25,499 nucleotides of DNA from a virus (lineage: Duplodnaviria > Heunggongvirae > Uroviricota > Caudoviricetes). Every line of letters starts with the position of its first letter. The first letter of the stretch is position 1. Both the position numbers and the translations under genes were made by a program. A model generated the notes under the pieces. That model was given only the letters and a program-made list of their open reading frames with translations, was not told the origin of the DNA and did not search any database. This document shows positions 1,046 through 25,499 of this stretch, piece by piece. The stretch lies in IMG/VR virus record IMGVR_UViG_2671180429_000007. One strand, written 5' to 3'.

Positions 1046-1417
1046 TTGTGGAGAAAGTTGATGCGTGATATGTATGAAGTAATGGATCGTTGGGGAGCTT
1101 GGGCTGCTTCAGACAATAGCGGAGTGGACTGGCAGCCGATAGCGGCTGGTTTCAAGGGACTTTTACCTCATGGCAAAAAGTCACGGATTCAGTGTGATGA
1201 TGACGAAGGCATCATGATAGACAGTTGTGTGGCTCGGTTGAGAAGGTATAAACCAGAGGAATATGAGCTCATCATCGCCCACTTTGTTATCGGTATCTCA
1301 TTACGCACTATTGCGAAGAAGAGAAAATGCTCTGATGGCACAATTAGGAAGGAACTGCAAACTGCAATGGGGTTTGTTGACGGCTGTTTAGCAATGTTAG
1401 CTTATAGTATGGCATAA
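1046..1417 (+). CDS. Q-type late-gene antiterminator (small Phage_antitermQ-like form)
   Basis: 123-aa ORF immediately after the DUF968 gene. Motifs (RWGAWAA...WQPIAAGFKGLLP...C..D....C..) match my recollection of the small antitermination protein Q family of lambdoid prophages. Position upstream of the lysis cassette fits. Confidence 0.65.
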   Translation: MWRKLMRDMYEVMDRWGAWAASDNSGVDWQPIAAGFKGLLPHGKKSRIQCDDDEGIMIDSCVARLRRYKPEEYELIIAHFVIGISLRTIAKKRKCSDGTIRKELQTAMGFVDGCLAMLAYSMA

Positions 1418-2611
1418 AAAATAAAATAGATTTACTGCCGATTTTTCAAAAAAGACTGGGAACTGTTTATATCCAACGTAAATAAGGCCTCCATAAAACA
1501 TGGCTGATGCGAGATATTTAACAGTTCTCATCCTTTTTTTAGCTTTATCAATCAAACCTGTAATGCTACTCTTAATACTATCTGCATTATCTTTGATTTC
1601 TTTATTTTCTTCAAACTTTAAATACTTATCGAAAGCGGACTCCACTCGAGAACGTAAGTTGTCGAATGTTTCATTGAATATCTCAATAGAAATGTAATTG
1701 ACTTTTTTTATCATCCAAAGTCCTGCGATAATCAATATTGCTTCGGTTGTTTCATTAGCCTTCACTAAGCCACCAGCAGCTATTAATGCACCGGGAATAG
1801 TCAATGCTTTTGTCTGATTAGATGATATGAATTCGTTAATTTTACTCGTGAACTCAAGATTTTTCTCATCGAGTTCGTTAAGAATTTTATTTACAGAAAA
1901 CCTCTTTGTGTAAATCTCATATAGTTCATCATATTTTTTCCTGACGAGTTCAGTAGAGTTAAGCAAGTCAAAGAAATTGAACGTACCATTTGCTTTAAAT
2001 ACTTCGTTTATGGCTGAGCGTATAACGAGCTTGCGCTCGCTTTTGTGTAAATCATTGATTTTTATTGTGTCGAGAAGCTCCTTTATAATTTCATATTTAA
2101 GAGACGAGTTCGATAAGCGATTAATCTCGCTATATTGTAAAAAATGCGTGAGTTCGACTGTATAACTTTTGTCTTCATTGGTGAAAAATAAGACAGAGCA
2201 GTCACTGTTATGATGATCAGCAATTAATGAAAGGATATCTTTCCACATAAAGAAAATATGGATTTTTTCGATGCTTTCATTCTTAGAAGTAGGGAGTATT
2301 AACGGCGTTCCGATGATATAATTTTTCGGAAGAGCGTTTTGGGTGTTTACTCTAGACCAAAAAGACTCAACATTCTCATAAATTATAGCGTCATCCCAAG
2401 ATGAAGCTTGGCGATCTAGCCAAATTTCATTATTTTCGATGCAGGTTGTTGCCTTTTTATAACCTATAGATTGTAACAGTCTAATTATTTCAGAACTATT
2501 TACAATAACAATGCTTTCTTCAAGACTTATGACAGTGTAGTAGCCCTCAACTCTGCTTGAGGCTCCGTTAATAATCTGCGCTAATCTTGATAAGTCATCA
2601 GCAATTGTCAT
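1397..2611 (-). CDS. Hypothetical protein with C-terminal hydrophobic (likely membrane) segments; second gene of AT-rich two-gene moron
   Basis: 404-aa ORF, visibly AT-rich, K/N/I/E-rich. Start codon at 2611..2609 lies 2 nt after the stop of the upstream gene (2616..2614). Hydrophobic stretches ALTIPGALIAAGGLV, AILIIAGLWMI and YLASAMFYGGLIYVGY near the C-terminus. I recognise no family. 3' end overlaps the Q gene 3' end by 21 nt, convergently. Confidence 0.6.
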   Translation of the reverse strand: MTIADDLSRLAQIINGASSRVEGYYTVISLEESIVIVNSSEIIRLLQSIGYKKATTCIENNEIWLDRQASSWDDAIIYENVESFWSRVNTQNALPKNYIIGTPLILPTSKNESIEKIHIFFMWKDILSLIADHHNSDCSVLFFTNEDKSYTVELTHFLQYSEINRLSNSSLKYEIIKELLDTIKINDLHKSERKLVIRSAINEVFKANGTFNFFDLLNSTELVRKKYDELYEIYTKRFSVNKILNELDEKNLEFTSKINEFISSNQTKALTIPGALIAAGGLVKANETTEAILIIAGLWMIKKVNYISIEIFNETFDNLRSRVESAFDKYLKFEENKEIKDNADSIKSSITGLIDKAKKRMRTVKYLASAMFYGGLIYVGYKQFPVFFEKSAVNLFYFLCHTIS

Positions 2612-2613
2612 TA

Positions 2614-3789
2614 TTAGCTGTCTCTATATCTTTTGAGTTCATCATAATTTGCCTGACTCAATTTTATCACAATTTCGCATTTGTTGTCAGTGAGAATTAC
2701 AGGCTTATTTGACTTTTCGTCTCCAATAGCTCCACGCATTATTTTCAACTTAAAATTATTGTCGTTATCTGCCACTTCAATTGTAAGCGCGCTTTCAGCT
2801 GCTTTAGGAGTTGGTTCAAATTGAGGGTCAATCTGGAAACCATTAAGATTAACAAAATCGACAAACGTTCCCTTACATTTGTGTGAATCAGTCAGGCATG
2901 AGTCAATTATTTTTGAAATATCCTCTATCTTAACGGACTTATTTCCGTGTTTATCTTTTGATTTTTTTTCCAGTAAGGATTTAACTTCATTGTCAATAGT
3001 ATCACGCAGTACACGACCGAGTGAGTTTTTACTAGCAAAAATATCTATAGCACTGAATAATTGCTGAATGCTTCTTTTATTGTCCGAATCATGTCGGCAA
3101 CCTAATGAGTCTTTGAAAAAATCGCTTTTAGATTTACCTTGCAAGAAATGTACATATGAGTCACCCTTGTTTTCTGGATAACTGGCTTCGAATAAAGTTA
3201 AATCGAACATCGCAGCCTGCCGTAAGGCATCGGTATTAATTGGATTTAATCTTGTTGGGGTCAACTTATCCGAATCAAAGTCATAGGCGCTTTGTTTATC
3301 AACCATTACGATTAGAAGTTTCCCCAAATCCTCTGGTTCGGTAGACTTATAGTGGATGAAAACAACGCTCCCCCCCTGAAGTTGGGCAACTCTCGATTCG
3401 TTATTAGCATTATGTTTAAGCTTCTCTATTATAGCTCTAGATAAATCAATGAATTCATTATTTTTATTAATGTATTTTTTTAGGATCGTAGGAATGGATG
3501 AAGGGTTGTGATCTGAGTCTAGGAAGTTATGAAATTTGTTTTTTCGGCTAAATTTTTTCTCAATTCTGGTTATGAATTCAGATGTGACTTCATTTTTTAG
3601 ATCCCAAACTTCACCTAATCGATAATCAAATGCTCTTGAATCATTTTTTTCAAGATTTGCTGTTACAGCACCAATAGGAAAGTACGATTGTTTGCCCAGC
3701 ACTACAACATGAGGCGTGGCACCGCATTTATCGCAAGCTACAGTTGGGTCGTCAAGAACATTGCCACATTCTAAACAAGTTATATCCAT
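2614..3789 (-). CDS. Zinc-ribbon protein with NdpA/YejK-like (NA37) nucleoid-associated domain; first gene of AT-rich two-gene moron
   Basis: 391-aa ORF, AT-rich. N-terminus has CxxC...CxxC (CLECGNVLDDPTVACDKCG). Central block GGSVVFIHY...LLIVMVDKQ...AMFDLTLFE...YVHFLQGKSKSDFFKDSLG resembles my recollection of E. coli YejK/NdpA (GGFVLFCHY...ARIDLTEWE...[22 protein letters not shown]). Needs HMM confirmation. Confidence 0.6.
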   Translation of the reverse strand: MDITCLECGNVLDDPTVACDKCGATPHVVVLGKQSYFPIGAVTANLEKNDSRAFDYRLGEVWDLKNEVTSEFITRIEKKFSRKNKFHNFLDSDHNPSSIPTILKKYINKNNEFIDLSRAIIEKLKHNANNESRVAQLQGGSVVFIHYKSTEPEDLGKLLIVMVDKQSAYDFDSDKLTPTRLNPINTDALRQAAMFDLTLFEASYPENKGDSYVHFLQGKSKSDFFKDSLGCRHDSDNKRSIQQLFSAIDIFASKNSLGRVLRDTIDNEVKSLLEKKSKDKHGNKSVKIEDISKIIDSCLTDSHKCKGTFVDFVNLNGFQIDPQFEPTPKAAESALTIEVADNDNNFKLKIMRGAIGDEKSNKPVILTDNKCEIVIKLSQANYDELKRYRDS

Positions 3790-21918: not shown

Positions 21919-22963
21919 ATTTCAGCGCCCGACGCTGGCAGAAAATATCAGTATGCTCCGTAACGATTTATTCGCCAGGCTGGACGTCAGCGACACGCTC
22001 CGGCGCATGGATGAAGACGTGCGGGCAAAGGTGTATGCGGCGGCGCTGCATACGGTTTACGGGTACATCGATTATCTGGCAATGAACATGCTGCCTGACC
22101 TGTGCGATGAGTCCTGGCTGGCGCGACATGCTGCGATGAAACGGTGTCCGCGCAAGGGGGCCACGGCTGCCAGCGGGTATATGCGCTGGGAAGGTGTCAG
22201 CGATGGCCTGAAGGTGACCGCCGGGAGTGTTATTCAGCGCGATGACCTGGTTCAGTACACGGCAACTGCCGATGCAACCAGCTCCGGTGGTGTCCTGCGC
22301 GTGCCGATCGCCTGCTCAAGTGCAGGCGCGGTCGGTAACGCTGACGACGGTACGTCATTAATCCTGGTCACGCCGGTTAATGGTCTGCCGTCTTCCGGCG
22401 TGGCAGATACCCTGACAGGTGGATTTGATACTGAAGAGCTGGAAACGTGGCGTGCCCGCGTCATTGAGCGGTATTACTGGACGCCTCAGGGCGGGGCTGA
22501 CGGGGACTATGTCGTCTGGGCTAAAGAAGTGCCCGGCATTACCCGCGCATGGACATACCGTCACTGGATGGGAACGGGAACTGTCGGTGTGATGATTGCC
22601 AGCAGTGACCTGATTAATCCCATTCCGGAAGAATCAACGGAAACGGCAGCAAGACAACATATCGGGCCACTGGCCCCGGTGGCAGGCTCTGATTTGTATG
22701 TATTCAGGCCGGTGGCACATACGGTGGATTTTCATATCCGCGTGACGCCGGACACACCGGAAATACGGGCTGCCATTACCGCGGAGTTGCGTTCGTTCCT
22801 GCTGCGTGATGGTTATCCGCAGGGAGAACTGAAGGTATCGCGTATCAGTGAGGCGATTTCCGGTGCGAACGGGGAATACAGCCATCAGTTGCTTGCACCG
22901 GTGGACAATATCTCCATTGCGAAAAACGAACTGGCGGTACTGGGGACGATTTCATGGACGTGA
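21905..22963 (+). CDS. Baseplate J-like protein (Mu gp47-like)
   Basis: 352-aa ORF following GP46. Baseplate J family features. Confidence 0.8.
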
Positions 22964-23538
22964 CAAACGATGATTACATCCGCCTGTTATCGGCACTGTT
23001 GCCGCCCGGTCCGGCGTGGTCAGCCAGCGATCCGGCGATTGCCGGTGCGGCACCGTCATTAACCCGTGTTCATCAGCGTGCGGATGCCCTGATGCGGGAG
23101 CTGGATCCGCGCACCACCACTGAACTGATAAACCGCTGGGAGCGTCTGTGCGGTCTGCCGGATGAATGTATTCCGGCGGGAACGCAGACCCTTCGCCAGC
23201 GTCAGCAACGGCTGGATGCGAAGGTTAACCTGGCGGGCGGCATCAACGAGGATTTTTATCTTGCACAGCTTGCTGCCCTGGGCAGACCAGATGCCACCAT
23301 CACGCGATACGACAAAAGCACGTTCACCTGCTCATCGGCCTGTACTGACGCGGTGAATGCGCCGGAATGGCGGTATTACTGGCAGGTCAACATGCCAACC
23401 ACCACCAACACCACCTGGATGACATGTGGCGATCCCTGTGATTCCGCACTGCGTATCTGGGGTGACACCGTTGTCGAGTGTGTGCTTAACAAACTCTGCC
23501 CGTCGCATACCTACGTAATTTTTAAATATCCGGAGTAA
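22954..23538 (+). CDS. Tail protein, YmfQ/DUF2313-like (Mu gp48 / P2 gpI-like)
   Basis: 194-aa ORF between baseplate J and the tail fibre, the same position as ymfQ in e14. Confidence 0.7.
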
Positions 23539-23541
23539 TCC

Positions 23542-24327
23542 ATGCATCGTATAGACACGAAAACCGCGCAGAAGGATAAGTTCGGCGCGGGTAAGAACGG
23601 TTTTACCCGTGGTAACCCCCAGACTGGCACGCCTGCCACCGATCTGGATGATGACTACTTTGATATGTTGCAGGAAGAACTCTGCAGCGTGGTGGAGGCA
23701 TCCGGTGCCAGCCTGGAGAAGGCGCGGCACGACCAGTTGCTTACCGCGCTTCGTGCGCTGCTGTTAAGCCGCAAGAATCCGTTTGGCGATATCAAATCGG
23801 ATGGCACGGTGAAAACGGCTCTCGAAAACCTTGGTTTGGGAGAAGGCTCTGCATTACCTGTTGGTGTGCCTGTTCCATGGCCTTCAGCCACACCGCCAAC
23901 AGGCTGGCTGAAATGCAACGGTGCGGCATTTTCTGCTGAAGAATACCCGGAACTGGCAAAGGCTTACCCGACCAATAAATTGCCTGATTTACGTGGTGAG
24001 TTTATTCGTGGCTGGGATGATGAACGTGGTGTGGATAGTGGGCGAACTCTGCTTTCAGCGCAAGGAGATGCTATTCGAAACATTACTGGCGGTTTTGGTC
24101 AGTTGCGCGTAAACAGCGAAATTAATGCAATTGTCGATGTTCAAAGTGTGAGTGGGGCTTTTTACGGAGGTACCTCAGTCCGGAATAACATCAATGTATC
24201 TATGACATACGCTAATGACCGAAAAATCCGACAAGATGTTCACTTCTCGGCGGCAAATGTTGTTCCAACAGCAAATGAAAATCGTCCACGTAACATCGCC
24301 TTTAATTATATTGTGAGGGCCGCATGA
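23542..24327 (+). CDS. Side tail fibre protein
   Basis: 261-aa ORF. N-terminus ([46 protein letters not shown]) is the conserved tail-fibre anchor region. Followed by a tail fibre assembly gene. Confidence 0.7.
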
Positions 24328-24929
24328 TGAATAAAGCTGTATTGAATAGCGAACTCATTGCCATAAAAGCGGGAGACATTATCATTTATAATTATGATGG
24401 TGAAACGCGGGAATATATTTCTACATCAACTGAATATCTCGCTGTCGGCGTCGGTATCCCGGCATGTTCCTGTTTGGATGCACCAGGTACACATAAAGCT
24501 GGTTATGCAATCTGTCGCTCTGTAGATTTAAATTCATGGGAATATGTGCCAGACCATCGCGGTGAAGTTGTCTATAGTACCGAAACGGGAGATACCAAAG
24601 AAATCACAGTTCCGGGTGATTACCCGGAAAATACAACCACTATAGCCCCATTAACGCCATACGATAAATGGGATGGTGAGAAATGGGTGACCGATACTGA
24701 GGCACAGCATAGCGCCGCAGTAGACGCGGCAGAAGCACAGCGTCAGTCACTGATTGATACTGCAATGGCTTCCATTAGTCTGATTCAACTGAAATTGCAG
24801 GCCGGGCGGAAGCTGATGCAGACAGAAAACACCCGACTTAACGCTGTGCTGGATTACATTGACGCGGTGACGGCAACAGATACCAGCACCGCGCCGGACG
24901 TCATCTGGCCTGAACTGCCGGAGGCGTAG
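24324..24929 (+). CDS. Tail fibre assembly protein (Tfa)
   Basis: 201-aa ORF with ATGA overlap to the fibre gene. C-terminus ...[15 protein letters not shown] is typical of Tfa chaperones. Confidence 0.8.
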
Positions 24930-25320
24930 GCCATTCAATATCTGGCGCACCGGAAGTATCGACCAGTTCCAGTGCGTCCAGATAATCCAGCCACAAATTA
25001 TATTGCGCCAGTTCCTCACCTTTCAGGCGACCAATCGCCGCTTTACCTGGCCATTGTCTGCTGTTCATGTGCTCGTTGGCTTCATTAATAAGTTTTCTTT
25101 TTTTCAAATCCGCCAATGCAATAAGGTTTTCTTTTGATAAAGGTGGTTGCTCTGTCAAAACCGGATATCCCTCCTGATTGCTGACTATTTTCATGCCATT
25201 ATCCTGACCATCCAGTAGTAACAGCCATTCATCCGTGGTTATCTCAACAGCATCTGAAGGTGCTTTATTTAAATCGGTAAAAAAACCATTTTCTTTTTGT
25301 GAATAGAAGTATCTATCCAT
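24901..25320 (-). CDS. Tail fibre assembly protein, alternative copy on the opposite strand
   Basis: 139-aa minus-strand ORF convergent with the + Tfa, overlapping it by 29 nt. C-terminus ...[13 protein letters not shown] parallels the + copy. GGAGA RBS upstream of its ATG. Confidence 0.75.
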   Translation of the reverse strand: MDRYFYSQKENGFFTDLNKAPSDAVEITTDEWLLLLDGQDNGMKIVSNQEGYPVLTEQPPLSKENLIALADLKKRKLINEANEHMNSRQWPGKAAIGRLKGEELAQYNLWLDYLDALELVDTSGAPDIEWPTPPAVQAR

Positions 25321-25340
25321 TTATTAATCTCCAAAAGCAA

Positions 25341-25499
25341 TGAACCGCCCCGGTTTTCCTGGAGAGTGTTTTATCTGTGAACTCAGGCTGCCAGATCATC
25401 GTTTCTGATGGAAGCATAATAAGCTTTTTCTGCTTCTGCCGGAGGGATATGACCCAGCCTTCCCAGCAATCGTCGATTGTTATACCAGTCCACCCACGT
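25341..25499 (-). mobile_element. Partial IS element (IS3-family-like) at window edge
   Basis: Terminal sequence TGAACCGCCCCGG... begins at 25341. A minus-strand ORF running off the window encodes a DDE transposase C-terminus. Element continues beyond 25499. Confidence 0.55.
25383..25499 (-). CDS. Transposase (DDE/rve integrase core) C-terminal fragment, truncated by window end
   Basis: Reverse-strand translation ...TWVDWYNNRRLLGRLGHIPPAEAEKAYYASIRNDDLAA* has the YNxxRxHxxLGxxxPxE-type C-terminal motif of IS3-family OrfB. Stop codon at 25385..25383. Confidence 0.6.
   Translation of the reverse strand, partial: TWVDWYNNRRLLGRLGHIPPAEAEKAYYASIRNDDLAA

Follow-up and report, generated by a model that had tools for sequence, protein, structure and literature searches.

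Prophage Context and Gene Content of the Locus

The DNA analysed here (hereafter, the window) is a 25,499-nt stretch that is 100% identical to the chromosome of Escherichia coli O103:H2 PV16-126 (NZ_AP038987.1; assembly GCF_055389055.1). It belongs to an e14/SfV-like prophage integrated at thrW, beside tRNA-Thr, that encodes an integrase, ymfK/ymfT/ymfL-type regulators, Q, lysis genes, an HK97-type head, and a Mu-like contractile tail; many of the prophage genes (ymfQ, tfaE, and ymfR among them) receive e14 gene names from PGAP. The locus of interest comprises the following features:

22954..23538, + strand: ymfQ / Mu gp48-like baseplate gene (Pfam Phage_Mu_Gp48, 1e-26; ymfQ in PGAP)
23542..24327, + strand: tail fibre gene (ORF, 261 aa; Pfam Collar at aa 108-155, 7e-16)
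23819..23844, no strand assigned: left crossover site, 26 bp (pix/gix/hix-type match inside the fibre gene)
24324..24929, + strand: Tfa, TfaE-type chaperone (ORF, 201 aa; Caudo_TAP, 3e-30; WP_001030519.1)
24901..25320, - strand: Tfa', TfaP-type chaperone (ORF, 139 aa; Caudo_TAP, 3e-25; WP_000376429.1)
25324..25340, - strand: stump (17 nt) of an alternative fibre exon of the gp53-like C-terminal type (last 5 codons, ..IAFGD, and stop)
25341..25499, - strand: end of an IS3-family element, taken to be IS629-like (part of a 1310-bp element; the transposase reads toward tfa')

The late operon reads from ymfQ, which lies directly upstream, into the fibre gene; Mu gp48-like and baseplate J-like genes (Pfam) upstream of the fibre belong to a Mu-like gp46/gp47/gp48 baseplate set. 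Promoter and terminator scans of window positions 23300-25499 gave no excess over shuffled sequences.

Chaperone Pair, Fibre Gene, and Crossover Site

The preliminary description of this DNA reported a convergent pair of tail fibre assembly genes that overlap by 29 nt and have parallel C-termini, and both observations are borne out. The overlap occupies 24901..24929, and both products score far above the gathering cut-off of Caudo_TAP (PF02413) (105.4 bits for Tfa and 89.1 bits for Tfa', against 22.1). The C-terminal 65 residues of the two proteins are 35% identical (BLASTP, E=1e-7), which indicates homology and not chance likeness. PGAP places the start of the + strand Tfa one codon later, at 24327, a trivial difference.

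The first 100 or so codons of the fibre gene make up a constant N-terminal part, and the variable C-terminal part joined to it is of StfE type and has a tail-collar domain. The same description had placed a crossover site within this gene, at 23.6-24.1 kb, and the site does lie there, at 23819..23844, starting in codon 93 and spanning codons 93-101. It reads CTCTCGAAAACC TT GGTTTGGGAGAA (in full, CTCTCGAAAACCTTGGTTTGGGAGAA). A scan of the 25.5-kb window with the Gin/Hin/Pin-type 26-bp consensus TTNTCNNAAACCNNGGTTTNNGANAA returned this position as the sole match, with 1 mismatch, and 100 shuffles returned 0 matches. The site is identical at 26/26 positions to the left site of K-12 e14 (L004 4779-4804) and to the left site of the prophage in strain CH4790 (L002 6418-6443). 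A relaxed scan (up to 6 mismatches at 18 specified positions; window plus 20 kb of the source genome) gave matches at chance level only (6 in the window vs. 4.1 per shuffle).

Comparison With the e14 P Segment of K-12

The e14 P segment (Plasterk and van de Putte, 1985, as cited in PMC4272514) comprises stfP/ycfK, tfaP, tfaE, stfE, and pinE (Kirigo et al., 2025; PMC12529663), and its inversion by PinE, PinQ, and PinR is experimentally documented (PMC12529663; PMC4272514). The K-12 e14 region used for comparison (L004) has the order ymfQ, stfP (ycfK), tfaP, tfaE (- strand), stfE (- strand), and pinE, with a 29-nt convergent overlap between tfaP and tfaE (L004 5518..5546). Window positions 22901-23846, which cover ymfQ and the constant fibre part up to the site, have 98.5% nucleotide identity to e14. 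Past the site, the matching DNA is the stfE/tfaE side of e14 in inverted orientation, at 94.9% over the first 195 nt of the variable exon, and the reverse match continues at 87.4% over 792 nt (tfaE and the 3' end of tfaP). By these comparisons, the window carries an allele of the e14 P segment. The two e14 sites are identical, respectively, to the left site of the window and to the right site of intact relatives (see below), so that gene order, the 29-nt overlap, and the 26-bp left site are shared with e14 by the window, and the right site by those relatives.

The copies differ in several respects. Whereas e14 is a remnant at icd, the window copy belongs to an apparently complete prophage at thrW. 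StfP of K-12 shares 96% identity with fibre residues 1-105, and TfaE of K-12 shares 89.5% with the + strand Tfa. The variable parts represent other alleles: identity is 60% between fibre residues 96-261 and the K-12 stfE exon, 53% between Tfa' and K-12 TfaP, and only 31% between the alternative exon of the relatives, which is gp53-like, and the K-12 StfP end. Identity to e14 is 87% over tfaE and the 3' 168 nt of tfa' (window 24277-25068), but the remaining 5' portion of tfa' (25069-25320) is too dissimilar for blastn to report, and this drop at 25068/25069 points to a mosaic junction inside the chaperone gene. Finally, e14 is invertible, whereas the PV16-126 copy, which is without the right half including pinE, cannot invert.

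The orientation in the window, in which the StfE-type end follows the constant part, is the "StfP2" form that Kirigo et al. (PMC12529663) call inverted; these authors found an inverted P segment in 33% of 562 genomes. The + strand Tfa is predicted to be expressed together with the current fibre C-terminus.

Intact Relatives in Both Orientations

The prophage of CH4790 (L002; window position = L002 position + 17401) aligns with the window genome over 7.9 kb at 98.2% identity and has, in the window orientation, the fibre gene, tfaE, tfa', a gp53-like exon, and pinE. In the promoterless alternative exon (L002 7923-8321; 132 aa), Pfam recognises a gp53-like C-terminal domain (1.6e-13); the Resolvase and HTH_7 domains are both present in PinE, which is 95.6% identical to K-12 PinE. 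Two inverted crossover sites are present (L002 6418-6443 and 8271-8296), as they are in strain ACN002 (L003) and in K-12. Both chaperones of the window (WP_001030519.1 and WP_000376429.1) are common to PV16-126, CH4790, and ACN002.

ACN002 carries the same DNA as CH4790 (99.8-99.9% identical) with a 1865-bp segment flipped between collinear flanks, and the breakpoints of the inversion fall inside the two sites. Because the inner halves of the two sites are exact inverted copies of each other (TTGGTTTGGGAGAAG), a flip leaves the sequence of the sites unchanged. The fibre of ACN002 is a 216-aa protein in which the gp53-like end follows the constant part, and the StfE-type exon is the orphan beside pinE. 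The opposite orientations of CH4790 and ACN002 thus constitute direct comparative evidence of inversion in this prophage family. These flips are presumably driven by PinE.

An IS Element in Place of the Right Half

In PV16-126, homology to CH4790 stops at window position 25340/25341 (L002 7940), where an IS begins with TGAACCGCCCCGG. The element is 1310 bp long (L001 10942-12251), has matching terminal inverted ends, and carries its transposase on the - strand; PGAP annotates an IS3 family transposase with programmed frameshift. From its ends and length, we take it to be IS629-like. IS629 itself, about 1.3 kb long, has terminal inverted repeats and a two-ORF transposase with programmed frameshift. 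The likeness to IS629 is that of a 1310-bp IS3-family element with TGAACCGCCCCGG ends; a literature search with this end sequence returned only papers on IS6110. Beyond the IS, homology resumes at L002 10784, inside the TrlF gene, and the IS therefore stands in place of 2843 bp (L002 7941-10783) of the intact layout. The lost DNA comprises the alternative exon except for 17 nt, the right site, pinE, two small ORFs, and the last 439 nt of trlF. The window reaches only 159 nt into the IS; past that point the deletion is read, in one assembly, from the RefSeq record.

No target-site duplication borders the copy at 25341 (flanks GCAA and CTGA). A second copy, inverted and 94.8% identical, lies 72 nt into trlF and is flanked by a 3-bp duplication (CTT), as expected of a simple insertion; one copy thus has a target duplication, and the other abuts the deletion. 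IS629 generates target duplications of 3-4 bp and occurs mostly in prophages (PMC3271280), and IS629 with IEE gives rise to adjacent deletions, IEE being known from O103:H2 (PMC9943667). Among the matches listed from 5426 complete genomes, PV16-126 alone matches continuously through the tfa'-IS junction, and the event therefore looks recent and strain-specific.

The TrlF-family AAA ATPase gene lies at the prophage end, just outside the window (L001 12249-14468; NZ_AP038987.1 332141-334360). The intact 917-aa TrlF of CH4790 matches the PADLOC single-gene defence system Ppl (5e-157). The PV16-126 gene is broken at both ends, by the loss of its last 439 nt and by the second IS copy 72 nt after its start.

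Two further observations concern tfa'. The IS transposase gene is co-oriented with it and ends 62 nt upstream of its start, and the ribosome-binding site of tfa' (GGAG) is kept in the 20-nt spacer (window 25321-25341). Read-through from the IS could express the chaperone, which lost its fibre partner when the cognate exon was deleted and is now a relic.

A Decayed P Segment

The system is an already known one, the e14 P segment, here in decayed form and fixed on the StfE-type fibre end. Taken together, the above comparisons make it highly probable that the region is the e14 P-segment tail-fibre switch, carried by a full-length e14/SfV-like prophage and put out of action by a deletion associated with the IS. 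Where the switch is intact, PinE, a serine invertase, would recombine two inverted 26-bp sites, with strand exchange at the central dinucleotide; one site lies in fibre codons 93-101 and the other at the start of the promoterless alternative exon beside pinE. The flip, of ~1.85 kb, would swap the fibre codons from about 101 onward, which correspond to the receptor-binding C-terminus, and would bring the cognate Tfa behind the fibre, leaving the other exon/Tfa pair antisense and without a promoter. In PV16-126, the late operon reads from ymfQ into the fibre gene (constant part plus StfE-type tail-collar end) and on into the TfaE-type chaperone gene, and the deletion abutting the IS629-like element has taken the gp53-like exon, the right site, and also pinE, in which an enhancer is presumed to lie. 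A segment left with one site and without an invertase next to it can no longer undergo inversion. By analogy with Mu, P1, and e14, and with the papers cited here, the fibre C-terminus would be expected to set host range, and the locked fibre is probably still functional.

The view of the region as an e14/Mu-type invertible segment therefore stands with respect to ancestry, given a site that is that of e14 and relatives with a full switch in both orientations, and fails with respect to a present-day switch, the right half being deleted. A second site and an invertase gene had been expected beyond the IS, where a truncated TrlF/Ppl gene is found instead, the exon, right site, and pinE having been deleted. 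Having one site and no invertase nearby, PV16-126 presents the very findings that the preliminary description had named as speaking against a working switch. The term "shufflon" is likewise imprecise for this locus, since in the relatives a serine invertase acts on one pair of sites, unlike an Rci-type multi-site system.

There is also a small chance that the IS-locked state is adaptive, and more than decay. A single IS629-type event fixed one fibre type, removed the orphan-exon product, which is the counterpart of StfE2, and disabled the neighbouring Ppl, and tfa' might now be expressed by read-through. The StfE2 protein is reported to block T2 adsorption (Kirigo et al., PMC12529663), and the inability of PV16-126 to invert the P segment at this locus bears on the recently described anti-phage role of e14 inversion.

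Search for the Lost Half and Alternative Explanations

It is very unlikely that the switch still works in PV16-126 through the remaining site and a distant inverted site (e.g., in another prophage), with an invertase of the PinQ/PinR type supplied in trans. Such enzymes do exist: PinQ and PinR, members of the Pin family that are about 38% identical to PinE, invert the e14 P segment in trans (PMC12529663). Furthermore, four other O103:H2 strains (FWSEC0007, 20151001, CEC12044, and WL1467) have pinE and the gp53-like exon, 98% identical, at other chromosomal positions; the presence of pinE-type DNA in these strains and its absence from PV16-126 indicate that invertase content varies within the serotype. 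In PV16-126, however, no second crossover site occurs in the window, in L001, or within about 57 kb of the locus. Searches with PinE and the alternative exon (tblastn) covered the window together with L001 and L005, some 57 kb of sequence surrounding the locus, and gave no match, and PGAP annotates no invertase gene downstream of the segment.

The remainder of the chromosome was covered by megablast with a chimeric query, in which a trlF fragment with 27-nt IS flanks served as a strain-specific anchor and was joined to the reverse complement of L002 7941-8905. The PV16-126 record NZ_AP038987.1 was the top record and matched at a single place, the anchor, so that, at megablast sensitivity, the lost 965 bp are absent from the chromosome. 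This check covers the chromosome only, at a level at which distant Pin paralogues such as PinQ/PinR would be missed; at that level there is no right site, exon, or pinE on the chromosome. Moreover, an exchange between the remaining site and a remote one would flip a large arc of the chromosome, and would not swap exon and chaperone in register. Invertases of the Gin/Hin/Cin/Pin group also need a Fis-dependent recombinational enhancer in cis, an element situated in the 5' portion of the invertase gene; the stretch expected to contain it (pinE 5' region, L002 8351 onward) is inside the deleted 2843 bp.

The same search bears on the possibility that misassembly, for instance by collapse across IS copies, created the apparent IS junction and deletion, and that the alternative exon and pinE are really present. 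IS copies are a classic source of misassembly, and the junction occurs in 1 of 5426 complete genomes, among the matches listed. Nevertheless, we regard an artefact as highly improbable: the two IS copies can be told apart by 5% divergence and by their unique flanks, the chromosome sequence is a finished one, and the left junction is present within the window itself. In addition, after a misjoin the missing 965 bp would normally turn up at some other place in the record, in which they have no match.

Some phages have several fibre/chaperone pairs without inversion, but we give next to no credence to the convergent Tfa genes never having been in an inversion system and being independent chaperones of a phage with two fibre types, because the crossover site is identical to that of e14, the region is collinear at 98% with prophages holding the complete switch in both orientations, and a 17-nt stump of the alternative exon remains.

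The locus provides a clear case of host-range switch decay in a lysogen, in which one IS-associated deletion has left the convergent chaperone pair behind. Convergent Tfa genes reliably point to invertible-segment ancestry, whereas a claim of current invertibility needs both sites and the invertase to be found. Beyond correct annotation, the case has little wider importance.

Relation to Other Inversion Systems

An R64-type shufflon, in which the Rci tyrosine recombinase acts on multiple short repeats, was considered and rejected: the relatives have a serine resolvase-family recombinase, one site pair, and one segment. The likeness to the Mu G segment (Sc/Sv-U and U'-Sv', with gin) and the P1 C segment (cin) is one of design only. 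The shared design comprises a constant fibre N-terminus and two alternative exons, each with a Tfa-type chaperone, in convergent arrangement, as well as 26-bp inverted sites and an adjacent serine invertase. The Mu G segment is about 3 kb long, vs. ~1.85 kb for the segment described here, the constant part of which is far shorter, at about 100 codons.

From exactly the crossover site (L002 6418) onward, through the Tfa genes and into the invertase gene, the CH4790 sequence has 86-94% nucleotide identity to several phages, including Escherichia phage P2 from O157:H43 T22 (NC_041848), vB_EcoM-611R5, Klebsiella phage KP12, and Salmonella phage MET_P1_103_31; the cassette is also shared with Citrobacter phages. 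By contrast, the upstream constant fibre parts and the virion modules of these P2-like and other temperate phages are unrelated to those of the window prophage. Similarity that starts exactly at the site, next to unrelated flanking modules, points to exchange of the cassette as a unit between phage types, and modular exchange of such cassettes is known.

Antisense Genes Between Q and the Holin

Elsewhere in the window, two antisense ORFs (1397-3789, - strand) lie in the interval from the Q antiterminator to the holin, which is the position of stx in Stx phages. PADLOC gave no defence match for either ORF, and the second (404 aa) has no Pfam match. The first encodes a 391-aa NA37/NdpA-like nucleoid-associated protein (Pfam, 1e-23), and the pair may represent a moron or defence cargo.
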